From: Amoeboaphelidium occidentale
Lineage: Eukaryota
DNA length: 20,000 bases
Direction: 5' to 3'
NCBI GenBank assembly: GCA_023515795.1
Contig: JALGPX010000046.1
Coordinates: 56,080-76,079 of the forward strand
A program made the position numbers and the translations under genes. The notes beneath the pieces were generated by a model. It saw only the letters and a program-made list of their open reading frames with translations, had not been told where the DNA came from and did not search any database. Positions within the stretch are counted from its first letter, which is position 1; every line of letters begins with the position of its first letter. Below are positions 1,119 to 20,000 of the stretch, piece by piece.

Positions 1119-1151
1119 TTCGACTGATTAAAAAAAAATTTTCATCGGTCG
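1119..1151. promoter_or_regulatory. 33-nt divergent spacer between RPS30 and TAD2 (putative bidirectional promoter)
   Basis: Lies between the two ATGs. Imperfect inverted repeat tcgactgat...atcggtcga flanks an A/T tract. Confidence 0.5.
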
Positions 1152-1685
1152 ATGGAGCGCGATCATGTTGAGTTTATGGAAGCTGCAATACAAGTAGCGA
1201 AGAATGCGCGCCTGGTAGATGAAGTTCCGATAGGGTGCGTGTTTGTTCATGTTCCTACTGGTGAGATCTTGGCGTCTGCTCATAATCGGACATGCATTGA
1301 GAAGAATGGTACCAGACACGCTGAGATGGTTGCGATCGATGATATTTTGACAAAGTACTCATATGAAGTGTTCAGAGATTGTGTTCTTTATGTAACAGTG
1401 GAGCCCTGCATAATGTGCGCTGCTGCTTTGAGGGAGATTCAGATCAACAAGGTTTACTTTGGTGCTTGGAACGAGAAGTTTGGTGGTTGTGGTGGTGTTT
1501 TGACTGTACATCAAGATGAATGGGATGGTAAAGGCGGCAGATATGAAGCAGTTGGTGATCTCTTGCGAAAAGAGAGTATAATGCTCCTCAGGGAATTCTA
1601 TTTGACAGAGAATCATAAGGCTCCAAACCCACAAAAGAAAGATCGCAGAGTACTAAAGTTTGATATACCTCCACCAAAACAATAA
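1152..1685 (+). CDS. TAD2: tRNA adenosine-34 deaminase catalytic subunit (ADAT2)
   Basis: EVPIGCVFV, HAE and TVEPCIMC zinc-deaminase motifs, NEKFGGCG, C-terminal FYLTENHKAP. Confidence 0.93.
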   Translation: MERDHVEFMEAAIQVAKNARLVDEVPIGCVFVHVPTGEILASAHNRTCIEKNGTRHAEMVAIDDILTKYSYEVFRDCVLYVTVEPCIMCAAALREIQINKVYFGAWNEKFGGCGGVLTVHQDEWDGKGGRYEAVGDLLRKESIMLLREFYLTENHKAPNPQKKDRRVLKFDIPPPKQ

Positions 1686-1730
1686 TAAGTTTTTCATGTA
1701 AATAGATTCTTTATATTAATTAGCGTCTGA

Positions 1731-4262
1731 TCATCCCCATACGTTACCAAAAAACCGGTTCTGAATCGAACTTGAGATTGAAGACAGTTCTTTGGTTAGC
1801 GATGGCCGATTTGTCGGTTCTTTCAGTTGTTTCTGCGTCGGCTTACTCTCAATGTGTACAGCGCCAATATTTTCACTGTTCTCAAGGATCGATTCGACCA
1901 AATCATCCAAACTAGTGCGCTCAAGTGGTTGATAGCTGACAGGAAACAATGCAAAACGAGAGCCACTCTGAATAATAGGAACAATAACATGTTGTTCTGT
2001 GAGAAATGATCTTACACTTGAGCCTTCGTGAGGCGTGTAATTCGAACCAACATTAAATGCCTGAAACAACGAAGAGTATCTTGTTTGGCATCGATCAATT
2101 CTTTCTGAAAAGGTATCTTTTAAAGTTTCAAATTCACTGATACTCGACAAAACAATCTGCGCTTTGTTCTTGACATCCACAAAAGATGAATTCAAATCTC
2201 GCTTATCATCAGTCTTGTTTAGCCTGTAAACGAACGACGGCTTTAAAATCTTTCCCAAAAACAATAAATCAAAATAAGACTGATACAAATGGTGTTTCTT
2301 GTCTTCAACTGAAAAAGCACTATCGAATAAGTTCCTAAAGAATTTGATTGTTTCTTGAGATAACTGAAAGTCAAAGTACTCAAAAACCTTCTCGAACTCA
2401 AGCACTTCAGTGTGGTGCTTCAAATCAGTGACTATTCGAAACAGAATTCTGATGAGTGTCGGTGAAGGATGAGACGGAAGTATGTAACGTTCATTTTCTA
2501 TCTCAACAACATCCCAATTCGACGATGCCATCTTACTGGGTTTGTTCATTTGCTTCGTGAGGCTAAATTGAAGCACATTCCAATGATCAGCATCTTGAGC
2601 ATAATAGTCTTTTAAAGTATCCGAATATGTCTCAGTAAGCTTCTTAACTAGCGGTTTGAACGCGCCAACAAAAACTTCAAGTCCTTCATTCACAGCAGAA
2701 TCGAATTCGTGGGATACTTCTGGGAGTCCAGTTGCTGCAGTAGCTTCCTGAATAATACTATCCTTCTGAGACAAAAACAAGCTCTTGGTCTTCTTTCCTA
2801 GAATTGTAAGAGCATTAATGTCTAGATTATTTTCAGATAAAGACAAGATTGTTTTTGAACAAAACTGCAAAATTTCAGTAAATAGAGATCTGCAAGAATC
2901 CATATAGTGAGGCTCAAGCTTAGGATTATCTTTAAGCAAAGAAACTACAGATTCAAACTGTCCCTTAAAATCAATCCTTTGTTTGGAGCTGTCAGACAAA
3001 AACTCTTGAGCTCCATACAGTGCAGACTTCATTGTCATATCAATAATTTCAATACTTTTCGAATTGAATGAAGTCTCAAAGAGTTTATCCCAAACATTGA
3101 TGTTCTCAAAGAACTTAGAAAGTATTTCTGATTTCCCTAGAATAGCCTCGATTTCGCGCTTAAGCAGAACCAATTCCTGACCAGTTTTGGCCTCTTTTAG
3201 CGATATAGAATTAAACTGACTTACAACAGTTTTGAGCCATGATTGAAATTCCGTTTTGAAGAACTCTCTGTTCTTGCTTAGCAAAAATGATATCCGTGGT
3301 TTCAGTACACGAACATTTGGTGGTAAATAACGATACATCAGGTGCATCTTAGTCTTTGAAACATTAAATAAATCATTAGCGAGAGCTGAAGACGATACAG
3401 AAGGATGCAAATTAATGCCTGGGTCGAGATGATCATGAATGTACTGAGACAAAACACCACTGGATCCATTATGACCCACAAAAAGTCGGTAGCCTTCTTC
3501 CAAAGTACCAAGAAGCAAGCTTAGCCTCTCTTTAACAGAAATATCATCTCTAGAATGCGCATTATAGCGTTCCTTCAAAAAGACTTTTGTAAAAATACTT
3601 TCCTCATCGTAACTATCAAGCATCATCAAACAAAGCACGGAATCCAGGACATCATCGCTTTTCGATCTCAAAGACTCAAAACAGAGTTCCGTAATTTTAG
3701 TTTTTAACGGAAGAATATCATCGTTCCATTTAGTCCGAATGATCCCTTTAAACTCTTCGTTGGCTGACAAATTCTTCTGTATTTCTCTCGCCAGCAAGAA
3801 CAGCAAGGACGCACTCAACACCGCAGAATTATCCAAATGAAAATGAATCTGTTCGTAAGAGTCAATTAACAGTTTTACTTGACATGCAACTTGAAACGTT
3901 TCTTTAGCTGAAGGGTCTTGAGGATCAATCGGACTAAGCGGCGATTTAACTTTGCCAGGGTCTCTCATTTCTGCCCCAATTTTCCGTAAGCCATCTTCAA
4001 TTGATGATATCGATTCTCTTAATTCTGATACTTTCGATGGCATAATTGTGATGATGGAGGAAGCTGCGCTCTTCTCTTCGCTGTTTGGCAAGAAGTCTCT
4101 GTAATGTGCGCCAACCAAATCCCTGAGCTCCTGCCTCTTCGCATTCGAGTCATTCCGGACTTTTAAATAAAGTTGACGCAATTCTGCTACAGAGTGCTTT
4201 TGGAAGAGGCGATCTGTTTCTGTTGCGGCTGAAGTTGCAGATGGCTGCTTCCCAATTGTCAT
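1731..4262 (-). CDS. COG1: Conserved oligomeric Golgi complex subunit 1
   Basis: N-terminal Vps51/COG1-like motif DRLFQKHSVAELR...KRQELRDLVGAHYRD, then VKLLIDSYEQI and LPSHPSP. 843-aa intronless ORF. Confidence 0.8.
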   Translation of the reverse strand: MTIGKQPSATSAATETDRLFQKHSVAELRQLYLKVRNDSNAKRQELRDLVGAHYRDFLPNSEEKSAASSIITIMPSKVSELRESISSIEDGLRKIGAEMRDPGKVKSPLSPIDPQDPSAKETFQVACQVKLLIDSYEQIHFHLDNSAVLSASLLFLLAREIQKNLSANEEFKGIIRTKWNDDILPLKTKITELCFESLRSKSDDVLDSVLCLMMLDSYDEESIFTKVFLKERYNAHSRDDISVKERLSLLLGTLEEGYRLFVGHNGSSGVLSQYIHDHLDPGINLHPSVSSSALANDLFNVSKTKMHLMYRYLPPNVRVLKPRISFLLSKNREFFKTEFQSWLKTVVSQFNSISLKEAKTGQELVLLKREIEAILGKSEILSKFFENINVWDKLFETSFNSKSIEIIDMTMKSALYGAQEFLSDSSKQRIDFKGQFESVVSLLKDNPKLEPHYMDSCRSLFTEILQFCSKTILSLSENNLDINALTILGKKTKSLFLSQKDSIIQEATAATGLPEVSHEFDSAVNEGLEVFVGAFKPLVKKLTETYSDTLKDYYAQDADHWNVLQFSLTKQMNKPSKMASSNWDVVEIENERYILPSHPSPTLIRILFRIVTDLKHHTEVLEFEKVFEYFDFQLSQETIKFFRNLFDSAFSVEDKKHHLYQSYFDLLFLGKILKPSFVYRLNKTDDKRDLNSSFVDVKNKAQIVLSSISEFETLKDTFSERIDRCQTRYSSLFQAFNVGSNYTPHEGSSVRSFLTEQHVIVPIIQSGSRFALFPVSYQPLERTSLDDLVESILENSENIGAVHIESKPTQKQLKEPTNRPSLTKELSSISSSIQNRFFGNVWG

Positions 4263-4304
4263 CGCAGTGAAACGAAATATGTTTCAACTTTTAAAACGCT
4301 TTTA

Positions 4305-5069
4305 TTACCGATAAGTCGGCGGCCTGTTGTCTCTGTTGAGAAGTAACCGTGAATGGAGCCATTCTACTGCTCCTTTTACGCCATCCCTATGAATAAATTA
4401 GGCGCGATGCTAGACAGTAAAAATACCCCGTTAGTGCGCTCACTGGCATGACTTTGCTATCTCTAGCATCTAATTTAGCCGCCAAGGGATTAAATGCCTC
4501 CTTAATCTGCTCGACCCTCAACGCTTTATCGACTATATCTTGCTTATTCGCAAGCATTATCACAGGAACACCTTCAGTTGACGATGAAGATATCACATTC
4601 TCTTCACAATTACTTGATACTAAGTAAAAGATTACCAAATACTTGTAGAACTTCAGCTATTCTGCTAACATCACAAGAATCAATAACGAACATAATCGCA
4701 TGACAGGAATCATAGTATTCGTTCCATATCTTTTGTAAGTCAGTCTGCCCACCAAGATCCCATATCTGAAGCCTCGAATGTCCAATATCAAGTTTACCAA
4801 CTAAAGATCAATCGAATGATTTATGCCGCAGTCTTATTACTGTTAAGTCCAATGGTCGGTGTAATCTTGTCTGGTGGGAGGCCAGGCACACCCAGGTACA
4901 GCGATTTAATCTTTTCTAATAGAGTCTATAAGAAAGAATTAGAGGTCATGATACTACAGATCTTGTTTCATTTTACAGTTTTGCCTGCATTATCAAGGCC
5001 GAGCACCAGTACATTGTACTCCTCCTTTCTTGCCAAGTGCTTATACAGGCCGGTCAGTAAAGTGTACAT
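4305..5069 (-). CDS. ARFRP1: ARF-related GTPase ARFRP1 (yeast Arl3), 199 aa; introns 4976-4926, 4840-4801, 4635-4602, 4426-4387
   Basis: Spliced translation MYTLLTGLYKHLARKEEYNVLVLGLDNAGKTTLLEKIK...WDLGGQ...LANKQD...SALTG. Four GT-AG introns keep the frame. Tyr2 in place of the myristoylation Gly is typical of ARFRP1. Confidence 0.93.
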
Positions 5070-5130
5070 TTAAGCGTTTTCTATTTGAATATCCTTATTG
5101 ATATTGAAAATCAAGTTGTTATCGACAGTG

Positions 5131-5749
5131 ATGCAATTGCGCTCTAAATTACTGATAATCCCTAAGCGATTCTTCATTCCCTCGCCCTTCAGTCCAGCAA
5201 GTAGAGAATCTGTTGTTACTCAGAAAAAGATACTTCCGTACGTGTCCTAATGATACAGTGTTCAGTTGAACTAAATTTTGAAGGTATCGTCCAACGGAAC
5301 TTTATGATATTGTTGCTGATGTTGGAAAATACCACGAGTTTATACCCTTGTGTACGTCCTCGGTCGTGTTATCCAGCAGAGTGGAGTTGATAAACAATGG
5401 AAGTATGGAAAAGCGGATACTGGAGATGAGTGAGCTGGGGATAGGCATAAATGGAATGGACGTCAAGTACACGAGCAAAGTCACAAGGGAGGAGCGCATT
5501 AACGGAAAAGAACTTTATAGGATATTAGCAAATGTAGATAATGATGATATATTCCATCATTTGCGCACAGAATGGATGTTTAAACCTTTGCTAAATGCAG
5601 AGCATGACCGTAAATGCTTAGTGGAGTTCGATGTTCGCTTCAAGTTCAAGTCTCCTATTTTGGCTCAGCTTGCGACAACTATGCTTGAGGAAAGCAATAA
5701 GCTGATACTTAATGCCTTTGAAAGAAGGGCTAGAGAAATATACCAATAG
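5131..5749 (+). CDS. COQ10: Coenzyme Q-binding START-fold protein; intron 5238-5283
   Basis: Spliced: basic N-terminal presequence-like stretch, then KKILPYRPTELYDIVADVGKYHEFIPLC, IFHHLRTEW and AFERRAREIY. Confidence 0.88.
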
Positions 5750-5775
5750 ATTGTAGTTGTTTTTATATTAATTGC

Positions 5776-6431
5776 TCAGATTATGGTTCCATTGATGAGG
5801 TTCAAGAACTTGTTACGCTTCGATTCCGTAAATGCTATTCCGTTCTCGTTCAATAACGATTCCATTTGTTTCTTAACTTGCTCTGGATTTGTGGTTTCAA
5901 TTTCGATTTCCCAACCTGTGCCAAACGGATAAGTCGTCTCGTCCAATTCTACTGTTTCAGATGTCCATGGAATCTTTAGTCTGAGCGTTTTAAACTCGCC
6001 AACAACTTTCCATGCAGTCTCTGGTGTCGCGTCTGCTCCAATAACTGAGAATATGTGCTTAATTAACGGATATTCTCTGGAATATTTCGCAATGCTACTC
6101 GGATCTCTCAAGATTTCCTGTCCGATTTCCTTTGTGAGCTCCGTTTCTTCTTCCCTGACTTTGCTTATGCCATCTGCTAGAGTTGCTTTTCCTTTCCATG
6201 TAAGAATATACTTCTCGCCATTGTTAATATCACGAACACGAACGATGTTTCTCAGTTTTTCACTATATTGCTTGTTATGGCCTTTAACAACTTGCAGGCT
6301 TACAGAGACAAATTGACTGTGTCAAGATAATAGTTTGCTTGGTGCTGGGTCTCCTTTGGTTCTCCAAGAAGAGCTTTGACTTTAAGGTATTCTTCTTTTG
6401 TCGGAAGCCTGAGCTTTATTTCTACCTCCAT
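5776..6431 (-). CDS. CYTH / triphosphate tunnel metalloenzyme (TTM3-like), 204 aa; intron 6303-6263
   Basis: Starts MEVEIKLRL (ExExK motif). Also Q-x-NYYLDT, VRVR, GEFKTLR, ELDETTYPFGTGWEIEIET. The 41-nt intron GTAAGC...TAG restores the frame. Confidence 0.88.
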
Positions 6432-6837
6432 TATTGTGAGAAAACGCAAATCTCCGCAAGTGTCAGGGAGTCATGCAGTATCAATGCTGTTTCACATCTC
6501 ATTCCGGAAGCCTCTTGTGAGCTTTTCGGCAAGAAATATATTTGAAGTAAAACTCTATTCATACTATGCATTCGCGTTCTTCTGTGAGGTTTGGAATTCG
6601 CGAAGTAACAACGCGTATTGCTGTCAGAACTCCTTCAAGATAACAAAACCGGATATTTCTCAATTCTCGTGTTTGCAGTCTGCATAACACTTAACCTACT
6701 GCGTCACAGAACTAAATAGTCGCTATTTGGAACGTTATTGTTAATGATTTCGCTGTCGCAGCCTCACGATACTCGAAGTTTGCACGCTGTTGCGCTTTCC
6801 AGTTGATCGAGATCGCCCTCTGCAAATTTTTTTTGAA

Positions 6838-9800
6838 ATGGATCTGGTCAAAATTATTGAGCATTTGGCATTCGAAGGTGAAAGCGGTAAGTGATCATGG
6901 AATGAATGGTCTCTAATTAGCGTAGGCCTTCGGTTTTCCGAGTTGTTACAAGTTTCCAAAGGATTTGGATGGCTTCATCATGAATCGGACGAATTGTTGT
7001 TGTTGCAAAAGCTTATTTGTTCCGACCATGCTGAGATACACAAAATCATTGTACCCACGGAGGCGTTGTCTGTTATTCCTACACGAGATACTGTTGATAA
7101 GAGATCCGAAATCGACAAGTGCGCTTACGGTGCAGAGAAGCTACAGCAAGCAGTTATAGAAGCTCCTCTCGCTCATGTTATTGTGTGCTCTGCTGAGCTT
7201 CGGCTTAAAATATTCTCAGCTGGGGAAGTTAATAACAAACGTCTAACAGATAACTCCTTCAAAGTTCTTGAAGCGATCGCAGTATCAAAAGAGAAAGGAG
7301 TGACACAAGCCGAGCTAAAGAATTTGTTTGACATGGATTCGCGTACCGTGTTTTATCACACAAAACTTCTGGTACAGAAAGATATAGCCATCAAGAGGCC
7401 AGTTTCTCAAAATGGGGCTTATACACAGCTTATTGTATTGAAGAGGTTTGCAAACGGTCGCCCGGATGGAGCAGAGGGTGATGACGAAGAAGTATCAGAC
7501 AAAAGAAGCATTGAATTAATGGTATCGAAATTGACGAAAGTTCTTGACTCCGTTGAAAACAGGACGATTTGTTACGATGATATGAAAAAAGCTCCAGAAC
7601 TGGCAGTTTATAGTTGGGATGTTTTGAAGAAAGTTATTGGAAAATTAGAGGAGCATGGTATATTAGAACGATTCTACGTGAAGAATGGAAAGAAAGATGT
7701 TCGTTGTGCTCGACTTCTTGTTGATCCAGCAAATGTCAAAGGATACAAAGTTGAAAACAAGGACAATGTAGAACCAGCACCTGATATGGTTGCGGAGACA
7801 GAAGCATTTACGGTTGATTGCAGTCAGATTATAAAGGAGCATTTTGAAGAGAAAGTAGGACCAGAGACTTCTAGCAGTTCCAACCAACAAATTGAACACG
7901 TAGAACCGCCTATTCCAAAAGGTCCTCCAGCAGGCATTACCAATATGCGCGACATGCCTTTGTTCATTGGTCATCTTCTTAGATCAGATATGACATTAGA
8001 TGCTCAGATATTTTATTTGGTAGCTTACAGTGGGAAAGATGGAATTACATCCACAGAAATATTTTTGCTTCTTGGAGGAACATCGTTCAAAATGATAAAC
8101 AAGCTACTGAGTGATATGGAAGCATTAAAAGGCGCAAACAAGATTCGAAGGGTGAAAGAATTCTATGGCAAGGAACAGCGTTACAGGTATTTTCTTGCCC
8201 AACCAGCAAAATGGAGTGGCATCTATGGCAAGGGAATCTCTCTACCTGGTAGTGCACCAGACAAAGCTTCAGATGAAGAAGTCAGCTTAGTCGACAATAG
8301 TGTAGCTACAATACTTGGCGCCAAACCTGCTAATTTAAGTGTTCTTACGGTGGCGCAAAGAAGGGAAAATTTGTTGGAGATGCTTGAAGAACAAAAAATA
8401 ATTGAGTATACAGCTCGTTTTATGTCAGACTTCGAGGAGAAATACGAGAAAGACAGTGGAGTTACGCTTGATAGAAAGTCTATGCAAAGGCTTGCGACAA
8501 ATCTTCAACGTGAAAAGTTGTTAAAGATGGTTGTCGTTGAGTCAAGATCTATAACAGGAAGTACGGACACAAGAACGTTGTTTTTGCATCCTAGCATAGA
8601 CGCTAAAGGTCCTGAAATGAAAGCCTTCGTGGAGAAATTGAACGAAGATATGATTTCTAAATCTATTCAAAAAGTTTCGAAAGAATACAAAGATATTGAA
8701 GTCGAACGGCTTTATGATAACGAAGAGGAGGCAGAAAAATCATCCAACTATCCGAATTATTTTGCTGTTGCTGAAGCAAAAGGCTATGTTCGTGCTAAAC
8801 TGTCTAGAGCTCGAATTTTCCATCGCTACTTGTTCTCTATGTGCACATCTCTTATTGAAGACGAAGATTTGGAATCTGACATGACAGTAGATTCCAGCAA
8901 AGTGTTTCGCGAGCTTCCCCTTCAAGTGTTTTTGAAAGTAGTTGGAGTCTTTAGAGAGAATCCGGCATTGGATGAATTCATTACTGGCGGTGGCGATCTT
9001 TCATTACCAGTCTGCAAGGTGCCTTATCAGATCGCAAAAGCTATATTTGGAAAAGCAGGAATTAGTAGATACAAAAGAGCACTCAGAACTGTGTTTGATG
9101 TTCTAGCGGAATTGAAGCTAATTGAAAGTGTTGAAAGTCATCAAGCTGACACGGATATGTCTTTCCTTCCTAAAGAGTATCTTTTGAAGCGACAAGTTCC
9201 TTTTCCTTTCTTCGACAATGATACTGGTGAAATTTTGTACAAACCCCAAGATTTGTACAATGTTAATGATGCGGTTATATTTTGGAATGAACTTGAACAA
9301 GCGAGTTTGTTAAGAAAGAAGTTTTTAATCAAAGAGAAAGCAAAGTTGGCCAAGAAAGAAAAGAACAAGTCCAAAAAGTCGAAGTCCGGTGTAACAGAGG
9401 ATGCCATGGAGGTTGATGAAAACTCTGCCATGTTCGGTCAGCCGGTCAATGATTTGCCAACACCTATGCTGACTCCACTGGGTAGTCCATATATTGGGAC
9501 AGCGCTCTCAAGCGACATTCTTGTGGAGCAATCCAATTGGGATTTCTTGGCGCGCATTCCTCAAGAACGCTTGGATAAAATTTTGACTACGGCGGATGAA
9601 CAGCCAGATGGCGACTCTACAAAATCTTCTTTGGAAGATCCATATGAAAGTGAAATAGCTGCACGTTTAGCTCGCACATTACAGTCAAGTGTCTCAAAAC
9701 TTTCGGCGCCTCCAAAAAAGAACTTGAAAGTGAAACCTGCCCGTAAAGTCCAAACGAGAATAAGGCAAAAGAATATATGGACGGTAGAAATGGATCGTAC

Positions 9801-11517
9801 TTTGAATGCATGCTTCATTGCTGGAAGAGCCATTGTTGATACATGGCCACATCCTATTTTACCTTGGGCTCGAATTAGTGAGAAGTACTTTCCTGGACTC
9901 GCATCAAATGCATTAAGACAAAGAATTAATACAATTGCACGAAATGAAGATGTTAAGAATGAACTTGAAGCAAAAGTTGGTCGCTGGAAATCCAGGCGAG
10001 AAGAGTTGGTAAATGAAGGAAAGCTTGATAAAGTTCCACCAAGGCTTAAAGAATTTTCAAGTTATGATCTCGACAAAGATTTAAGCTTCATTAATGAAAT
10101 TGAGAAGACTGGATGGGGAATTGAACCACGCCATTGTCTGCCTGTAGTTCAAAGTGACGTGCAAGATCTTGCTGCATATTTGGAGGAGAACGAATTTGTT
10201 ACTGAAACAGACATTTCTATTGGTGAACCATACATTGATTTAGAGTCAAAGGATAGCATACAAGAGAAGCTAGGAAACTTCTTACAGAGTGATTATAGCC
10301 TTGCAAGAGATGAGAATGACAAGCTTGATTCTCGTGAAGAAGACTACGTTACTGGTTCACTTAAAAGTATGTTCCTTAACATGGACCCTTCCTATGATTC
10401 TAATCGAGCGATTGAACAATTATCAAAGTTTGATCAGCGTGTGTTGGAGCAGAAAGTTGATGAGCTTGTTCAAAACCGCTTTCTTCTGAATGTGAGGAAT
10501 ACACATAAGCAGCTTGGTCACAATGGACCATCGTATTCTGCTAACCAACAAGCACTACTGTTGATAACAGGGTTTGAAGACTTATTTGTCCAGCTGACTA
10601 AGTTCAACAAGTTTTGGCTAGAATTCTCTGGAACCTACGATTTGTCTGATGAGAATTTAGGAGATGTTTCATTTTTGTCTTTGGTTTCCATGCTTATCCA
10701 AGGCTTTGTAAGTTTCACTGTTGTAACAAAAGATGTTGGAGACGTTATGAAGAGCACTAGGAATGTTACTGAGGCTCCAGTGTATTCTGTGGTTTTCAGT
10801 CCAAAGCAGGCTAACAGATTGACGAAGAGAGAAAGAGAAGAGCCTGAAGAAGGAGGTCAGTGCGTTGATCCTAAGGTTAAATCTGAACTTGTGAGTAGCA
10901 ACGCTCGGGAAGAAGTTTCAGCCGAAAACGAGATTATGTGGGAAGGCGACTGGGAATCTTTGACGTCGTATGTAGCATCTAAACAAATTTCTGAAAAAGA
11001 ATTTAAAGCTGAACTCAGGGTCGGAAAATTGCAGAGAGAAGGTTATCAGAAGTTTTTATACAGAGTAAGAAGTGACAGTTCACTTGCATCTATCAATCCG
11101 CGAGGGAATTCATCAGATCCTAAATCTAGGGAAAGCATAGAACCAAGAGTTTGGAATGACGTGAAGGGAAGTTTTAATGCAAAGAAATTCAAGAGTGTTT
11201 GCTTGGCAGTCCTAAGCACGATAACATTACGCCCTGGAATATCATTTGTAAGTTTTTGATGTCGTAATAACTCTTACTTTAAGGCCAACCTAGTTAAACT
11301 TTTTACATTATCATTGGGTGCTTGCGAGATCATTGAAGTACTTGAATTTTTAATGTGGAGGAATCTTGTTAGAAAGCAAGTTTTAGAATGCGAAACTGGA
11401 AAGTTTGTCGTCTTTGAGGCAACAATACAATCAGTTCAAGCATGTGCTTACGATTTTGGAAGCTACGACAAGGTCTTTATTCCGGTGGATTGTGATCTTT
11501 TGAGTCTTATGGGGTGA
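6838..11517 (+). CDS. TFC3: RNA polymerase III factor TFIIIC largest subunit (B-box binding, GTF3C1/Tfc3), ~1534 aa; introns 6887-6925, 11248-11283
   Basis: N-terminus EHLAFEGESGL; B-block domain FKVLEAIAVSKEKGVTQAEL...MDSRTVFYHTKLL; TLDRKSMQR; KLSRARIFHRYL; C-terminal TITLRPGI. Both introns keep the frame. Confidence 0.85.
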
Positions 11518-11571
11518 CACCAAAATAATAGAAAGCCATTATAATTGAGATTACTCAAATCTTATTCGTGC

Positions 11572-11611
11572 CTACAATATTAGACGCTTTACCTTTACTG
11601 TTATTCCATAC
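11572..11611 (-). other. Intron-like 40-nt element outside any CDS, just 3' of the putative guide RNA
   Basis: Minus strand GTATGG...GTCTAAT-attgTAG. Length and signals match the other introns in this window. Confidence 0.5.
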
Positions 11612-11618
11612 AAAAGTC

Positions 11619-11954
11619 AATGAGTCAGTTGTAATCTTTCATCATTTCCATGGTCGAACCAAAGCCGTTAGCCTTTTGACTTGACGTGCTAAAACCTCAA
11701 CTGTGCTATGAAATCCTGCACTTCATCGTTCACTATGCCGATGAAGCGTGCCGACTCGTAGCAGGTTTTCTGTAAGATCGACCCTTTAACACGAAGGCAG
11801 AACTTCGCCAACCTGCCCATTTACGATCTGTTTTGCTGTCTTGGCGCTTGACTAAAAGTGATACTTCTCGCGTATACTTCTCCTTCTGGCCAAAGTTTGT
11901 AATGAAAATGGTTCGACCATGTTACGACCTTTTACCGTAAACATCACTCTCATT
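11619..11954 (-). ncRNA. Putative composite box C/D + H/ACA guide RNA (U85/U87-type scaRNA architecture), ~336 nt
   Basis: Terminal stem AATGAG/CTCATT with 3-nt K-turn bulge; C box GTGATGT (11947-11941); C'-like ATGATGA (11645-11639); D box CTGA (11628-11625). Perfect 13-bp stem 11649-11661/11909-11921 encloses two hairpins separated by H box ACAGAA (11773-11768) and ending in ACA (11704-11702). Guide GGTAAAAGGT is complementary to U5 loop 1. Confidence 0.72.
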
Positions 11955-12020
11955 TGCTAAAGAAGAAGCATTCGCGATTTGTAACAATATTGGATCTCCA
12001 ATGTGTTTCCTGTTATCGGC

Positions 12021-12120
12021 TCAGGTTCAGAATAGACGCTGTTACTCCCATAACTGCAAGGGCTAGATGCTGCCATAAAGATGATCTAAACCATAACATT
12101 TATTACATTTCATCAAACCC
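12021..12120 (-). ncRNA. Possible second box C/D snoRNA (~100 nt)
   Basis: TTGATGA (12116-12110) and CTGA (12030-12027, or 12024-12021), with a short terminal stem GGGT/ACCT. K-turn geometry is imperfect and no clear target was identified. Confidence 0.3.
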
Positions 12121-12143
12121 GTTATTTCATAAAATGAGCAAGA

Positions 12144-14228
12144 TCATTCACAGTCCATATGATTAGAGGAAGATTTCAATTGCGCGACTAATTCTTCATA
12201 GAATACCCTTGAGACGCCCTGTTCGCTTGAATTCATTACCAAAGATTCAAATTGATCGCACCATTCTTGTCCCAGAAGTTGTAAAACATTTTCTTGATGA
12301 ATGAAATTCAAAAGCTTCATGTTGAAGTCTTGCGAGCTATCTTTTATCAAGTTAATTAAAATGGCTTTCAAATTCTCAGCGTGACAAGGACGTGTGCTTT
12401 TAACAATTTCTTCAATTATGAAATCCATGGCTTGTTGCTTGCATTGTTTATCATCTTCATTCTTGAACCAATTCTCGTCGCAGACTTTTTGAAGTAAATC
12501 TTCACGAAGAGAATCCCGGCGACTTAACCAATTCTTTGCATTAAACAGATTGGCTTTGGCTTTCGACTCTGAAGATAAAATAGTTGGCAGTATTGCAAAA
12601 TGCTGCGATGCAAAAGCCTCTGTGGTAACCAAATCATTCTTGAACAATACTTCCGTCAGCATGATGACATGCTCTAAAACGTATTGATCTTCTTCAGTCT
12701 TCAATAAATCATCTACAGCAGACAGATGATCATCTCTAAACACGACTTTCTTTTGAGCTAAACACTGTAACATATCAATCGATGTCTTTCGAATTTTCCA
12801 ATCTTCTGAATTAGACAAACACATGGCAATGTCCAGCAATGCTTCATACACTTCAGGATTATCTTCAGTCTTTTCTAGTATGAAGATCATTAATTCTAAC
12901 CGAGAACGCAGAGCAGCAGAATGTAACATATCCTGATTAGCTAAAGTCACCAACGAAGACAGTAAATCATGCACAACTTGATTCTTAACTTCATTCTTAG
13001 TGATAGCATACAAGCAAAATCTTTCAGTGTACTTCTTCAATGAGGTATGAATCGGATCGGTGCTTGAGAGTAACTTGAAGTAGGGCCAGTTTGCAACATT
13101 ATTCAACATTTCCACGTTTACGCTATTGACCATTGAAGATGCTAAAAAGTAGCGTGCTATCATTTCGTTCTTTCTGAGACCAAATTCAATATCATGACCA
13201 GATACTGTAGTCGCTAAAGCAGTGGTTGCTTCTGGATCAACAAGATTTGAAGCATAAACAATGTAATCCTGAACCATACCATCATCGGCCTTTCCTTTCG
13301 CACACATGTACTTCCACGCAATAGGAACTATATCAAACAGTATCGCACGGTACTCCTTCCTGCCAGACATTGTGAGGAAGTAAAGAAGTTCTTCTCTAGG
13401 TGGAAACACATTGTGCTTATTGAAAGAGAAAACATCATTCGTCAGGGCCAAGTCAAATAGCTCCAAGATAGCTTCATTGAATATGCGATCCCTATTCAGT
13501 AATGAAAATGACAAGTTGATAGTCTTTGCGATTCTGACTCTTTCTTGTTCAGTGTCTTGGTTCCATGTGATTTCGGTCACAAAAGGCTTCAGGAATCTGA
13601 TGATCAACAACGAGTAATTTCTGTTGTACACAGCCTCCTTCTCAACAGCCCACTTGGAAACGATTTCCGTAAGATGCTCAAGGAGAATCGCGCGACCTTT
13701 CTTCAGGCCTGGGCGTTTGTCAGCCAAACACACCGACAGGAATTCTGCCATGGAATTCAGCGTGCGGCTATTAACAGCGCATTGCGCATTGAAACTCAAA
13801 ACTTCTTTGCTAAGCAGCTCAAATACTTCCTTCAAATGGTCGATATCAATTCGTCCTCTGCGTTCAACTTCTGCGAACAGCTTCCATATTGCTCGATCTT
13901 CCGTGCTGTCTTTCTGTTCGTGTGTTGTCTTCAGTCTAGCGACTAATGAATAGTAAATATCTTCTGCGATTTCTTCTTCTGGACCCATAAGTACGCTGTA
14001 CACTCCAACTGCTGTTGCGAATACGTGACCACGATCGCTTTTTATCATCTGCGCCAACAAGGACCCAACTTTGGGATCGCTTCCTACGCGTAGTTTTGAC
14101 TGATGCTCCATATCATTGAACCACTTAAATAGGCGTTCATAAACGACGTCTTCGTGGTCCGTCTTTCTGGCTAAATTCAACAAGTTGACGGCTTGCTCTG
14201 ATTCCGTTGTTTGCTCTTCGAACGTCAT
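12144..14228 (-). CDS. ARM/HEAT-repeat protein, BRAT1-like (694 aa from first ATG)
   Basis: Helical repeat protein with SEDWKIRKTSIDML and EEDQYVLEHVI (similar to BRAT1 WEVRDSALEF and ESYVRASAV segments as recalled). C-terminus MDCE resembles the BRAT1 terminal DCY. Confidence 0.6.
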   Translation of the reverse strand: MTFEEQTTESEQAVNLLNLARKTDHEDVVYERLFKWFNDMEHQSKLRVGSDPKVGSLLAQMIKSDRGHVFATAVGVYSVLMGPEEEIAEDIYYSLVARLKTTHEQKDSTEDRAIWKLFAEVERRGRIDIDHLKEVFELLSKEVLSFNAQCAVNSRTLNSMAEFLSVCLADKRPGLKKGRAILLEHLTEIVSKWAVEKEAVYNRNYSLLIIRFLKPFVTEITWNQDTEQERVRIAKTINLSFSLLNRDRIFNEAILELFDLALTNDVFSFNKHNVFPPREELLYFLTMSGRKEYRAILFDIVPIAWKYMCAKGKADDGMVQDYIVYASNLVDPEATTALATTVSGHDIEFGLRKNEMIARYFLASSMVNSVNVEMLNNVANWPYFKLLSSTDPIHTSLKKYTERFCLYAITKNEVKNQVVHDLLSSLVTLANQDMLHSAALRSRLELMIFILEKTEDNPEVYEALLDIAMCLSNSEDWKIRKTSIDMLQCLAQKKVVFRDDHLSAVDDLLKTEEDQYVLEHVIMLTEVLFKNDLVTTEAFASQHFAILPTILSSESKAKANLFNAKNWLSRRDSLREDLLQKVCDENWFKNEDDKQCKQQAMDFIIEEIVKSTRPCHAENLKAILINLIKDSSQDFNMKLLNFIHQENVLQLLGQEWCDQFESLVMNSSEQGVSRVFYEELVAQLKSSSNHMDCE

Positions 14229-14281
14229 CAACTTCAGAACGAAAAATCAGTTTGAAAAGGAACCTCTATTCTAAACGATCT

Positions 14282-17200
14282 TCAGAATTCGTACCATTTC
14301 TTTTCTTGTTGTTTCTTGTTGTATTCTCTAATAGTCTCTAAAAAGTCTTTGCTTTGATCAGCCAAGTTCGCAAACTTATCATCAAGCCTCTGAAGCTTTT
14401 CTCCTCGCTCAGCAAGATTGTTTCGAGCGTCTAGGAAAGCGTTCTGTTTCTTATCAGACGTGTCTGAGACTTCCTCAGCGCCCTCCATAAGTTCTTCTCG
14501 CTCGTTTCTATGAGAGGTTGCAGCCTGGGATTTCATCTTTCCTTCGACGTTATTCTGCTTTCTCTGCGTAGATTCCTTTGCTTTAAAATTGTACACCAGT
14601 TTCAAATCATCACATTCTGCAGCCCAATCTTGATCATTTGTCCATAATAATGCTCCCGTGAATGCTTTCTTAATTGTTCCCAAGAATTGTTGCTTGCTGT
14701 CCATTAGAACGTCCATATTGGGGCGCGATGGAATCTGTAACATTGTATCGTACGGAAGCCCGAGTGATAGCGGGACGTTTCTTCGTTTCTCTGCATGGAA
14801 TATATAAAACTGCTGAAGATCACCTCGATCAAACAAGATTGTAATTCTACCATCTTTACATATATCAATTACATCACTAAAAATTAAAACGAATCCAGTG
14901 TAAATTTTTACTCTTTGCTCAACTTCAGCGAAGAGATCTGATTTTTGAATAGCTGTTTCAACGTAGGCAGAGAATGAACGATCACCGTTGCATCTTCTAA
15001 AACAGCGACTAAAAAGACTTGTCCTAAATAATAATAAGCTACTGAAACTTCATGAAAGTACCCATAAAGTCAACTAAATTTGCCGCCATGATAATTCCTT
15101 CAAGAGAGATCTCGTATTCAACTTTTTGCGAGACGTTTTTTAATATCTTGATGCAAGACTTGTGACAAACGATAGTGTAGTATCTTGTGTCTGATATAGT
15201 TTCCATTGTTTTGAGTTTATCGTGGTTAAGACTATCAGCAGACCCTCCTTTCGCTTTCTTGTTCTTTTTAGGCTCTGTGGCTTCTGGATCAACTGGAGTT
15301 GGTGGTTTTTCTGTCTTACGGACCAAATCATCAGCCACGACTCTTTTTCCTTCAATAGAATCAATTATCGACAAGAATACATCTTTTGATGGAGATTCTG
15401 ATATTTTTGATCTAGCTACTATTGGCACAATGGCATTATCAGCCATATTAACCAATTCGATTTGGTATGCGTAAACACAGCCAGATTCCGTACCAACAAG
15501 CATAATCAGTGTAGGCGAGACCGGTTCAACATTTAAATCCTTCAAAGGAACAAAAACAGAAGAAAATACAACCTTTGTGACGATATCTGGGCGTAAATCT
15601 CCTTTTCCGCTATCTTCTGTGGAGGAAGTAAGCAGAATTTTTTCATGGTGTATTATCTTAAAGGTGCCGATATTGAGAAGCCAAAAATCTCCTGTACTTA
15701 AGCCGATAAAAAAGAGCCTGTTCTTGGGGTCATACTTGGTTATTGTAAAAGTTGCGTCGCTGGAGATGTCTTTCAACGTAATCGTAAACACAGGCTGAAA
15801 TCCACTAGAGCAAGTTGTGCTTACTTCTTCAATAATAAAACCATTAAGCTTTTCTTTTCTAAGCTTATCTTGAGACTCTTCCATCCTATTTCTTTCCGAT
15901 AGCTTGTATGCAGTAATTGACATTGCGTCGTAACAAACTAACAACATACTATCCTCTTCAACAAACTCAAAATAATTAATTTTTGGTTTCTCTCCTTCCG
16001 CAAAGTGCGAATCTAAAGTAAGATAATCCATTGGCTTTAGTGTTGCCCCGATTTCCCAAAACACTATTTGATTTTGTTCATTAGCCAATAGCAAGATATC
16101 GTTCATATCTGAAGGAGGATTTGGAATATCCAGCAATTCAGTATCGTCTTCAGCTTCTTCGTTACCACCACTGTTTTCTTCTGGTGATTCCTGGATTGTG
16201 AGATCTCGAAAGGATTTTAGAACTTTCATTGCTGTGACAGGGTCGGAACTGGATACTCCTGGTATTCCACCGCAAACCATTGGTAAAGGAGTCTTTGAAG
16301 GTTGACCTTCCTCAGATTGCAGTTGAAAGTCTTTAAGTTTGAAGAAATCCATTGCGCTTATTCCCAAAGCGAACTTGGCTAACTTTTGCAGCGGCTGATT
16401 GTAATAATTCAAAGTGTTGAATCCTGACATTGGAGGAAATCCTTTCAAGGTGATATCATAAGCTCTAAAGTATCCGGAAGAAGTTATTAAAAAGATTGCG
16501 GCTGGATCTAATTGCTGGTTGGCCCAAGGAGAATTTGTAGGCGTGACTATGAAACAATTAATATCATCATTCTCAATTCCTATCATATGTTGAGCCTTGT
16601 AAGATTTCATATCTGCAATATCTTTCCCGATTTCAAATATTCGAACTCCTCTCAGAGATTCCACAGATACATTCCCACCTGAAACAATAATCCACGAAGA
16701 ATCCTTTTGCTCCAGCGAACAGCACCATTCGATTTGATAGACAGGATCTAGAGAATAATTGTCGCGGTAACCTGATACGAATTTAACCGATAAAGCCTGA
16801 TCATTTTTCTTATTCCAGAAAGCGAACTGACCATTATCGAAACCAGCAACGAAATGACTTCCATCAGGTTTCCAACTTGCACATGTGACACTAATATCAT
16901 CCGTGCTCCTACCTTGTGGAACATATAAATCAGAGGAATTAACAAAGAAGCTTTTCAAGACTTTCTTTTCTGCGTGACTCCAAAGAACGATTAAACGAGA
17001 ATTATATCCGATTAGAATCTGTGTTGGGAACTGAGGATGTGTAATGCAAAACGAAACTGGAATAGACTTATGATTCTCAGGACACGGGATCAATTCTTGA
17101 GATAGGTTCCCTCTTTCACAATTCAAAACCAGGACATTGCCTGATACTGTACCCATGAAACCCACACCCATTCCACAAGGTAAATCGAAATAAGTTACTT

Positions 17201-17761
17201 GTTCTCCCACATCGACTACGAAATCTGCAAGACCATTAACCAAGTTCCAACCAACGACTTGGTTCCTCCCATCGATACTTATCAGCAGACCGGAGCCTTG
17301 TTTGAACTTGAGACATTTCACAGGATTGCGCCGATCGTTGTCATATTTTGATCGCGGCGAGGGAACATATCCATCAGGTTGATCTTTCGATGCAACGCTG
17401 TTTAACTCAAAGTATCTTTCAACACCAACCTGCCCAAAAACGACGATGCTACCCGTAGAGGTTCCGATTGCCATGATCCTTTGAACTGTGTCGTAAGCCA
17501 AAACGCTGATTATTCCAGGAATACCAAATCGGCAGCCCTACAGAGCTGATAAGACTTATAGCAGATGAAAGGCACCTGTTTAATTGCAAAGAATTTGTTT
17601 AATACATTCTCATCATGTTCCACCAGAGGGCAGAATGTTACAGACTGATTTTGTCCACTCTGTTCCTCCTTCTTGTGTAAACTGAATGCCTCCCGTAACT
17701 TTGAAAAGGTAAAACCTTTCTTATGCTTCGCTGACTTTTCCTTCACCGTAGGAGAACTCAT
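14282..17761 (-). CDS. Tomosyn / Lgl family (Sro7-like) WD40 protein with C-terminal R-SNARE; introns 17575-17538, 15061-15024, 14911-14877
   Basis: RFGIPGIISVLAYDTVQRIMAIGTSTG is the Lgl/tomosyn N-terminal signature. C-terminus ERGEKLQRLDDK...KKWYEF. Three introns join ORF-track fragments in frame. Confidence 0.9.
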
Positions 17762-17806
17762 CAAGGCGATCGAAGAGATTGAGTTGTTTCGCTTTTCGAA
17801 AGAGAT

Positions 17807-18655
17807 ATGATCGCAAAGTTCATGATATTGAGACGATACTCATCCAAATCACTTCCAAGCTGGCTACCTCTACAGATGGACCTAAAGATTGCTCTGCTGA
17901 AAAGATCAGATTTTAGTTCTGCAGAAGTTCAGGGAAATATCAGCGATCGACTGTTAACTTATGGTCAGCGTTTAAGCGAGTACACAGTAAGGCAAAAGAG
18001 TATGCCGCAGTATCAGAGGAAAGCTGCTATATTAATTCCGTTATGTACTGTTTCAAGTGATGATGATTCGATCGTTAATGAGCCGTCAATCCTATTCACA
18101 TTGCGAAGTGTTCAGCTCCGGAAGCATTCTGGTGAAGTTAGTTTCCCCGGTGGTTTGAGTGACCCTGTGGAAGATTTATGTGAAGATAGAAAGGAAGTTT
18201 TACTGAGCAGAACAGCAATTAGGGAAACTACGGAAGAATTACCGTCTCTGGATCGCAAGAACATCAAGATCCTTGGAACGCTTCCTCCGATTCCCGATAA
18301 AACACAAACAATCTTAGTTGAGCCTTATGTGGCATACGTTGGACATGTTAGGGCTATTATTAAAGATGGTGTCAGGTCTTATCCTGAAATATCATGGAAT
18401 GAATCGGAGGTTTCTGATGTTTTTACAATGTCGCTTACGGAACTACTGGACGAGAGCAGAGTTGGACTTCAGTCTTTCCATTCACGGTTCACAAAAATTC
18501 CTTACTGGAGAGGCCCACCACAGCGTATAGATGAATCTGAGGCGAACAATCCGATAAATTCAGTCGCCGATAAGAACGGAGTTAAATGTTACAGGATATG
18601 GGGACTGACAGCATATGTCCTTAACCAATTCATGCAAAATATTCTGTTGAAGTAG
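17807..18655 (+). CDS. Nudix CoA pyrophosphatase (NUDT7/NUDT8/Pcd1 family), probably mitochondrial
   Basis: AAILIPLC, ILFTLRSVQLRKHSGEVSFPGG (NuCoA motif), TAIRETTEEL, IWGLTAYVL. N-terminus is basic and presequence-like. Confidence 0.88.
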   Translation: MIAKFMILRRYSSKSLPSWLPLQMDLKIALLKRSDFSSAEVQGNISDRLLTYGQRLSEYTVRQKSMPQYQRKAAILIPLCTVSSDDDSIVNEPSILFTLRSVQLRKHSGEVSFPGGLSDPVEDLCEDRKEVLLSRTAIRETTEELPSLDRKNIKILGTLPPIPDKTQTILVEPYVAYVGHVRAIIKDGVRSYPEISWNESEVSDVFTMSLTELLDESRVGLQSFHSRFTKIPYWRGPPQRIDESEANNPINSVADKNGVKCYRIWGLTAYVLNQFMQNILLK

Positions 18656-18673
18656 CTGTTTAAAACGGTTTAT

Positions 18674-19912
18674 CTAAACTTTCTTGATGATCTGCACCAC
18701 ATCTTCATCTTCAAGTACATGTTCTTTACCAACACGCTGAGGCTGATGCTTTGCTGATTTACCCCAAACCAAGGCACATTTGAATTGTTTAATAATGGCT
18801 CTGTGAATCTGATTACAGAAATCTTCCACGCTATGTCTGTCACTTTTCAACACAACAGGTGAGGAGTAGTCAGGCAATTGCCCTTTAGGTTTAGTATACA
18901 CTCTGCACAGTCTTAGCTTTTCCCACATCTTGAAACAATTAAAAAAAATAAACAGTCATTAATCTTACCATTGCGAGCAGTTCATCGTAGTTCCAGTCAT
19001 GGTGAGCAGAGATGGGACAACAATTAGGAATATTAGACAAGATCTCTAATTCTTCAATAGAAATCTGATCAATCTTGTTGAGGACGTAAATGCACGGAAC
19101 ATAAATCGGATTAATGTCTCCGATAACGTCCAAGAACTCATCTTCTGTAGCATCACATCTAAAAGTGATATCAGCATTATGGATTTTGTACTCGGACATC
19201 ATCGACTTGATCAAATCATTGGTCAAATGCGTCAGAGTGACCGTCGTTGTGATGTTAATGCCGCCCTTGTCCTTCTTCTTGAAGTAAATGTTTGGTGGTT
19301 GTTTGTTCAAGCGCAGACCGTATCCTTCCAGTTCAGCCTCCAAAATCTTCTTATGCGACAATGGCTTCATAACATCCAGGACCATAAATATAAGCGAACA
19401 AGTTCTTGCGACCGCGATCACTTGTCTACCTCTACCTTTACCATCCTTTGCACCTTCAATGATTCCGGGTAAATCCAGAATCTGGATCTTTGCGCCCTTG
19501 TACTGAATAACACCAGGAACTTTATAATTAGTAAACCTCCTTAAATTAAATCGGAAAATTACCTGTAGTCAAAGTTGTGAATTCGTACGCGCCAACTTCT
19601 GAATGCGTTCCTGTCAATTTACTCATCAGCGTAGACTTCCCCACAGACGGAAATCCAATAAACCCAACACGGGCCACACCGGTCTTTGCAACATCGAAAC
19701 CAACTGAAGAGTATTAGTTGATGCTCTTTGGGAAATATCACGGAAAGCGTACCTCCAGGCCCTGATCCACCAACTGATTTTGGCTCCAATAGTTCCTTAC
19801 GCAATTTAGCGAGTTTGGCTTTCAAAAGACCAATGTGGTGCATTGTCGCTTTATTCTTTTGTGTGCGAGCGAGTTCATCCTCAATGTCTTTAATTTTCTG
19901 CACGACAGACAT
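18674..19912 (-). CDS. DRG1: Developmentally regulated GTP-binding protein 1 (Rbg1), 368 aa; introns 19752-19704, 19562-19520, 18968-18929
   Basis: [44 protein letters not shown], and TGS domain [12 protein letters not shown]. Three GT-AG introns keep the frame. Confidence 0.96.
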
Positions 19913-20000
19913 CCTCTAGTTTGATGAGTTTAAGTAATCAGCACTTTTGTGCTACGTTATTCAGCACTAGAATGAAAAACGCGGAATTCCAATCACTCAA

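Follow-up and report, generated by a model that had tools for sequence, protein, structure and literature searches.

A probable composite C/D and H/ACA guide RNA of the U87/U88 kind in the aphelid Amoeboaphelidium occidentale, with predicted counterparts in filamentous ascomycetes

Amoeboaphelidium occidentale is an aphelid, an algal parasite close to the fungal root. An intergenic element in its genome raises the question of whether guide RNAs that unite a C/D scaffold with an H/ACA domain, which in the literature searched were found to be described in animals only, also exist in this lineage. The element lies in a stretch of 20,000 nt that was analyzed as a whole (the window; contig JALGPX010000046.1), and an earlier reading of the letters alone (the sequence-only reading) had proposed such a hybrid there. 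Our analysis indicates that the locus probably encodes a composite C/D and H/ACA guide of the U87/U88 kind, with spliceosomal snRNAs, and above all U5 loop I, as its predicted targets. The features of the predicted RNA, with the basis of each in parentheses, are the following.

11954–11619, minus strand: whole predicted RNA, 336 nt (sequence, folding and separate RNA-derived contigs)
11954–11949, minus strand: 5' arm of the 6-bp terminal stem, pairing with 11624–11619, with 3 bulged nt ahead of the box C G-A (sequence)
11947–11941, minus strand: box C, GUGAUGU, with K-turn spacing (sequence)
11936–11927, minus strand: D' guide of 10 nt, antisense to U5 loop I (sequence complementarity)
11926–11923, minus strand: box D', degenerate CGUA (position by comparison)
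11921–11909, minus strand: 5' arm of the 13-bp stem that closes the insert (pair probability 0.8–1.0)
11893–11841, minus strand: hairpin A (predicted structure)
11885–11882 / 11853–11851, minus strand: weak candidate U1 Psi6 pocket of 6 bp in hairpin A (pocket scan)
11839–11834, minus strand: box H, ACAGCA, 14 nt after pocket A (unpaired with probability 0.83–0.98)
11829–11775, minus strand: hairpin B (predicted structure)
11820–11817 / 11787–11783, minus strand: candidate U5 Psi43 pocket of 8 bp in hairpin B (pocket scan, fungal profile)
11773–11771, minus strand: box ACA, 14 nt downstream from the first base of pocket strand B (spacing shared by 16 of 17 fungal-type loci)
11769–11662, minus strand: extra helices C and D (folding; fungal counterpart not shown)
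11661–11649, minus strand: 3' arm of the 13-bp stem (pair probability 0.8–1.0)
11645–11639, minus strand: box C', AUGAUGA, canonical (sequence)
11638–11629, minus strand: D guide of 10 nt, U4-type (comparison with nematode U87 and human U4)
11628–11625, minus strand: box D, CUGA (sequence)
11624–11619, minus strand: 3' arm of the terminal stem (sequence)

The element is flanked by the convergent 3' ends of a plus-strand gene for the TFIIIC large subunit (stop at 11517; Pfam B-block_TFIIIC match) and of a minus-strand ORF of 700 aa (stop at 12144) that has no Pfam match. Positions 1128–19915 of the window form a compact gene array in which the DRG1 protein is also encoded; this protein agrees fully, as far as the end of the exon (188 of 195), with an A. 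occidentale protein of its sequence cluster. Other translations of this array we take to represent tRNA deaminase, COG1-like, ARL3-like, COQ10-like, CYTH, tomosyn-like and Nudix genes. In a related strain the stretch that separates the TFIIIC 3' end from the flank of the RNA (about 11530) is unrelated, and the RNA itself is nearly unchanged. It should be mentioned that branch-point-like and 3' splice-site-like motifs occur at 11583–11572 (minus strand), 40 nt 3' of the RNA; the strain contig runs through them, with two letter changes there, and the RNA might have an intronic origin.

Is the element transcribed on its own? Parts of the region occur in six runs, of which four were compared with the window. 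The RNA evidence comes from three of these four, runs X2, X5 and X6 of the related strain, whose contigs are unstranded and do not give true ends. They skip a 36-nt GT..AG intron at 11248–11283 and are therefore RNA-derived. Each of the three runs has one contig on the element (11529–11942, 11585–11873 and 11636–11942, respectively), separate from both neighbouring mRNA contigs. Contigs from two studies end at 11942 and so fall short of the predicted 5' end by about 10 nt, which, the contigs being unstranded, is a weak hint; one contig extends at least 90 nt past the predicted 3' end. Run X1 covers 12217–12377 alone, outside the element, and the contig-free stretch 11943–12119 is not informative.

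The strain differs from the element by 3 changes in 324 covered nt, each of them at a position unpaired with probability 0.74–0.90. More changes were found in the upstream coding DNA (19 in 448 nt, p 0.007) and in the 3' flank (7 in 90 nt, p 0.001); for the downstream gene, with 11 changes in 481 nt, the difference in conservation from the element was not significant (p 0.18). The predicted fold of the element is stable (z = −3.06; none of 100 shuffles was equally stable), and that of the plus strand is on par with it (z = −3.21). Since the plus strand folds alike, the strand of the RNA is not given by folding; it comes from the boxes.

These data bear on one alternative, namely that the element is no guide at all but a structured 3' UTR or read-through product, a decayed copy, or a U5-like RNA of the plus strand. 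The equal folding of the plus strand, where the U5 loop motif lies in a 5-bp hairpin, would fit this, as would the unstranded contigs and the degenerate D'. However, all boxes are on the minus strand, the contig is apart from both neighbour mRNAs, and the element is more conserved than the upstream coding DNA. The sequence-only reading had named a strong match to a different RNA class, or a protein gene, as what would speak against a guide: Rfam contains no such match, the U5, U3, RNase P/MRP and SRP models included, and the list of open reading frames has no long ORF across the element. We regard the alternative as highly improbable, and the locus is almost certainly a real structured non-coding RNA gene.

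What kind of RNA does it encode? The scaffold described by the sequence-only reading is present: a 6-bp terminal stem with K-turn spacing and boxes C, C' and D on the minus strand, and a perfect 13-bp stem looping out about 250 nt. The latter encloses 247 nt, and the window has no other inverted repeat of 13 bp within a span of 400 nt. The pairing probability of the terminal stem, predicted without protein, is 0.14–0.25. The final U of box C is also found in the fungal loci L005, L007, L041 and L119 (see below). A canonical D' is absent from the element, where D' reads CGUA as against CUGA in all 24 look-alike loci described below, and the distance from C' to D is just 10 nt; the odd D' and this spacing could weaken either methylation guide. 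The degenerate D' permits a 5-bp hairpin of 11940–11936 with 11926–11922 (minus strand), with the U5 antisense then held in a loop of 9 nt. On the plus strand this 11940–11922 hairpin mimics U5 loop I.

The sequence-only reading had arrived at a composite without noticing its guides; both C/D guides were found here, and both resemble those of U87/U88. Their register was judged against human U5 and U4. The guide directly 3' of box C, GGUAAAAGGU (11936–11927, minus strand), has 10 bases complementary to U5 loop I (U5 37–46), the text of which is printed in PMC7960923 and in the supplement of PMC6984369. A 9-mer of this antisense occurs once in the window versus 0.07 occurrences expected. With CGUA taken as D', the fifth base upstream of D' faces U5 U41, and it is rather likely that the RNA would guide Um41 despite the odd D'; U5 of S. 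cerevisiae has no Um41. Human U87 is entered in the PMC6984369 supplement as 'H/ACA + C/D' with the targets U5-U41 and U4-A65, and its activity is given as verified in yeast there and in section 9 of PMC5733568. In the Rfam consensus of SCARNA6, box C is followed by the same U5 antisense, CUGA and a stem, and box D is preceded by a UUUUCAA guide.

The U5 antisense also spans C45, and in size and architecture the RNA is similar to U85 (SCARNA10), the guide of Cm45/Psi46 (PMC5733568, section 9). An orthologue of U85 guiding these two modifications is nevertheless barely conceivable here: the D+5 rule gives U41 and not C45, the pocket scan detected no U46 pocket, and the look-alikes match SCARNA6 instead. 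Of the parallel with animal scaRNAs drawn by the sequence-only reading, the composite design has held, the closest RNAs being U87/U88 (SCARNA5/6) and not U85.

The D guide of the aphelid RNA is identical in 8 of 10 letters to that of a nematode locus, L115; the L115 guide is complementary to human U4 61–71 as printed in PMC13253345. An identity of 8/10 is reached at two of the 209 CTGA sites in the window, one of them being the aphelid guide itself, and at two of 936 CTGA sites in prokaryote loci; we estimate the chance of it at about 1–2%, five guide types being allowed for. The aphelid guide forms eight of ten pairs with human U4 62–71, i.e., there are two mismatches, and the arguments for and against U4 as the target that it would address appear to us evenly balanced.

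To look-alikes of this RNA we turned with a scan pattern made of box C, the U5 antisense and a D'-like tetramer. The scan covered 29 of 64 metagenome parts and returned at least 117 loci (about 270 estimated), with 120 prokaryote loci as the null set. In total at least 24 of the 117 metagenome loci, 7 short and 17 long, were judged to be look-alike RNAs by reading part of the loci by eye, and 93 were set aside as chance; four matches from a viral scan were also taken as chance. Because the 5' motif was the search pattern, its sharing among the look-alikes is not independent evidence. Downstream of it, a U2- or U4-type D guide was found in 13/117 metagenome versus 0/120 prokaryote loci, and a pocket together with a D guide in 9/117 versus 0/120. 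At the Rfam gathering score there was no match in the 18 look-alikes scanned out of 24.

Among the short loci, L115 (292–573) lies behind a 5' splice site in the PRP6 gene of a tylenchid-like nematode, with best matches in Ditylenchus. It matches Rfam SCARNA6 end to end with an E of 1e-6, which is below the gathering score, so it has likely been missed by routine annotation. Six further short loci of about 290 nt form two groups (L022/L027/L072 and L021/L032/L039), both with the same 5' end, terminal stems, long inserts and other D guides; the two of these loci that were tested match SCARNA6 via their 5' ends. A U5 Psi43 pocket inside the RNA was found in none of the seven short look-alikes. 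The pocket of L022 was not counted, as it is located outside its RNA.

The 17 long loci (L005, L007, L009, L013, L038, L040, L041, L043, L050, L056, L057, L063, L064, L091, L102, L118, L119) point to filamentous ascomycetes. Nine of them adjoin a SCY1/CEX1-like kinase gene, whose best named matches are to lichen-forming Lecanoromycetes, Sordariales and other Pezizomycotina; the taxon was read from these kinase-gene matches, which do not include L043, L056, L038 and L118. L043 and L056 adjoin a PPR gene. The family spans about 380–520 nt or more overall, and 384–522 nt in the 12 loci with a complete U2-type D guide. None of the 11 long loci scanned has an Rfam gathering match; at E up to 1, SCARNA6 was the sole match in four of five fungal loci, via the 5' end on which they had been selected. 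For U2 44–50 the usual sequence was assumed, and 51–53 agree with a printed fragment. By the D+5 rule the fungal D guide would target U2 U47, a known methylation site (published modification table). One long member, L038 (2490–3100), has a different D guide and apparently a large insertion in the H/ACA region; L118 resembles it and is cut short.

The fold of the fungal inserts is hairpin-hinge-hairpin-ACA. Double-sided changes affect 10 of the 13 pairs of hairpin 2, a number reached in 0/500 shuffles and higher than in slid controls; this count is based on 14 sequences, several of them closely related, and on a structure drawn by hand. The pocket strands are unpaired and conserved (UGG/CGG on one side, AAUGGC/AAAGGC/UAAGGC on the other) and are in register for U5 Psi43, and ACA or AAA follows exactly 14 nt after the pocket strand in 16 of the 17 loci, the remaining one being cut short. 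Another target of the fungal pocket is possible, since most loci have a U-U mismatch at U40. In hairpin 1 a strand able to pair with the 5' end of U1 is located 14–15 nt before the H-like box in 12/16 loci, and UGAG occurs in 8 of 13 fungal cores; the H boxes of the fungi are mostly non-canonical. MAFFT misaligns hairpin 1 across fungal groups, and the covariation count is confined to hairpin 2. Filamentous ascomycetes are predicted to have a composite guide family, apparently unannotated, with putative guides for U5 Um41, U5 Psi43 and U2 Um47.

How does the insert of the aphelid RNA compare with this arrangement? Single pockets are common by chance, appearing in 14% and 18% of 5000 insert shuffles. 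Both pockets in the fungal order were obtained in 13/5000, at an opening cost of 1.4 kcal/mol in the aphelid RNA. When both window strands (40 kb) were searched with a profile derived from 10 fungal pockets, any lower stem of 5 bp being accepted, hairpin B ranked highest among 68 candidates, and its score was attained in none of 118 prokaryote loci; both this profile and the insert-shuffle pocket test were devised after the aphelid and fungal data had been seen. A covariance model of the fungal hairpin 2, built from 14 hairpins, did not return hairpin B among its 10 matches at E up to 10, since the letters of the lower stem are wholly different; the same model gives the fungal L038 just 9.4 bits, and this locus is missed too. 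MAFFT misaligns the aphelid hairpin, and also the full-length RNAs beyond the 5' end.

From the fungal arrangement and the profile rank of hairpin B it follows that the predicted H/ACA unit of the aphelid RNA is made up of hairpin A, box H (11839), hairpin B and ACA (11773). The sequence-only reading had described a hairpin-ACAGAA-hairpin-ACA unit; its motifs are present, and the unit itself sits one hairpin upstream. In the ACAGAA at 11773–11768 the last two letters are mostly paired. The ACA that had been taken for the end of the domain (11704–11702) is carried by helix C, in a bulge of a longer helix, and had to be given up in favour of the conserved one at 11773. Helix C is possibly a third H/ACA hairpin in the folding model. 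No UGAG CAB box was found in the loops of hairpins A and B. Hairpin A contains a 9-nt direct repeat (11882–11874 and 11869–11861, minus strand); in both copies the last five bases are complementary to U1 1–5, out of register with the H box. Judging from the modelled structure, a functional H/ACA domain with a U5 Psi43 pocket is likely, and U1 Psi6 as the target of hairpin A may be put forward tentatively, as a somewhat doubtful candidate.

A C/D guide whose long insert is structural and binds no H/ACA proteins, its H and ACA being incidental, is very unlikely in our opinion. It would agree with the weak Rfam matches, which are all of the C/D type, with the shortness of H and ACA as motifs, with the frequency of lone pockets in shuffles and with the mostly non-canonical H boxes of the fungi. 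It does not account for the invariant 14-nt distance between pocket and ACA, the conserved unpaired letters and the covarying stems of the fungal family, nor for the top rank of hairpin B in the fungal-pocket profile. The composite with an inserted H/ACA domain, as originally proposed, is supported both by the U87/U88-like guides and by the similar fungal composites.

It should be mentioned that Rfam returned nothing at gathering score for either the window or the element, and weak C/D-type matches alone at E up to 10; RF00478 (SCARNA6) did not match the aphelid RNA even at E 10. The search with SCARNA models that the sequence-only reading had suggested has thus given no family match for this RNA. 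Formal membership in the U87 family is not shown, because an Rfam match and a canonical D' are both missing. We nevertheless consider homology of the C/D scaffold with U87 very probable, and common ancestry with the animal RNAs is likely, although not proven.

As predicted from its sequence, the aphelid RNA would work like U87. Snu13, Nop56, Nop58 and fibrillarin would assemble on C/D and C'/D', and the 13-bp stem would bring D' and C' together and loop out the H/ACA domain. The 5' guide would pair with U5 37–46, so that U41, facing the fifth base upstream of D', would be 2'-O-methylated, and the 3' guide would be directed at U4 in the vicinity of A65. A Cbf5 complex on hairpin B would produce pseudouridine at U5 U43, and hairpin A perhaps one at U1 U6. 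Two RNP types would in this manner occupy one RNA, C/D at its ends and H/ACA on the looped-out domain.

Did such composites arise once or several times? Separate assembly, in which the shared target dictates the guide and C/D and H/ACA parts were fused independently in animals and in the fungal lineage, appears unlikely. It is favoured by the lack of model-level homology outside the guides, by the absence of the fungal/aphelid pocket from the seven short look-alikes and by the variation of D guides between groups. On the other hand, all groups agree in how their parts are ordered and spaced (C, U5-U41 guide, D', stem, H/ACA insert, stem, C', guide, D), and the aphelid RNA unites a D guide of the nematode/SCARNA6 type with a pocket of the fungal type, for which one origin is simpler. 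For this reason we favour a single origin. We lean, with some reserve, towards the hypothesis that a U87-type composite was already present in the animal-fungal ancestor, where one RNA would have written U5 Um41 and Psi43 (plus U4 and U1 marks). The aphelid would keep this ancestral set; the ascomycetes would keep an overlooked version of 400–520 nt with the D guide switched to U2 Um47; and in the animals the C/D guides would have persisted, the Psi43 pocket being lost to an RNA of its own.

As the sequence-only reading had supposed, no composite guide in fungi or aphelids was found in the open-access literature searched. In the available parts of the papers concerned, PMC2685112 reports no composite found in Arabidopsis, snoR102 is a C/D doublet (PMC2875012), and the Neurospora entry in PMC2780460 is limited to the U5-Am62 guide. 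The words scaRNA, hybrid and composite are absent from the main text of the fungal snoRNA inventory PMC5824354. New fungal snoRNA-like RNAs are presented in PMC8216456 and PMC5640933, none of them called composite in the text available, and PMC10557570 mentions hybrids, there without fungal cases. Half of the fungal RNA may be catalogued as a plain C/D or H/ACA RNA in the supplements of PMC5824354 and PMC8216456. If the present interpretation is correct, (i) the composite design goes back at least to the divergence of animals and fungi; (ii) a conserved RNA family has been overlooked in filamentous fungi; (iii) a genetically tractable fungus could show how two RNPs assemble on one RNA and in which order the U5 loop I marks are made; and (iv) the role of these marks in splicing, for which direct evidence is lacking according to the relevant passage of PMC7960923, would become accessible.

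Comparison of the aphelid RNA with known systems places it as follows. ACA57 (U5 Psi43), U109 (U1 Psi6) and plant snoR103 have the same predicted pseudouridine targets but, unlike the aphelid RNA, are stand-alone H/ACA RNAs without a C/D scaffold. U85 (SCARNA10) and U89 (SCARNA12) share the composite C/D-H/ACA design acting on U5 loop I; they serve Cm45 and Psi46, whereas the aphelid RNA is in register for Um41 and Psi43. With U87/U88 (SCARNA5, SCARNA6; RF00478) it has in common the composite H/ACA and C/D design, box C followed by a U5 antisense placed for Um41, the stem after D', a predicted H/ACA domain between D' and C', and a U4-type guide before box D. It differs from them in its length (336 nt versus about 265–280), the degenerate D', the extra helices C and D, the candidate U5 Psi43 and U1 Psi6 pockets, the intergenic position between convergent genes and the lack of an Rfam match. 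The fungal family (L005, L013, L050, L064 and others) differs from the aphelid RNA in its canonical D', its size of 384–522 nt, the U2-type D guide (12 loci), the long arms around the H/ACA core and the SCY1/CEX1-like neighbour, which adjoins nine fungal loci and is not present in the aphelid window. At the same time, the two share the 5' end, the long insert, the hairpin-hinge-hairpin-ACA fold, the pocket strands and the 14-nt distance.
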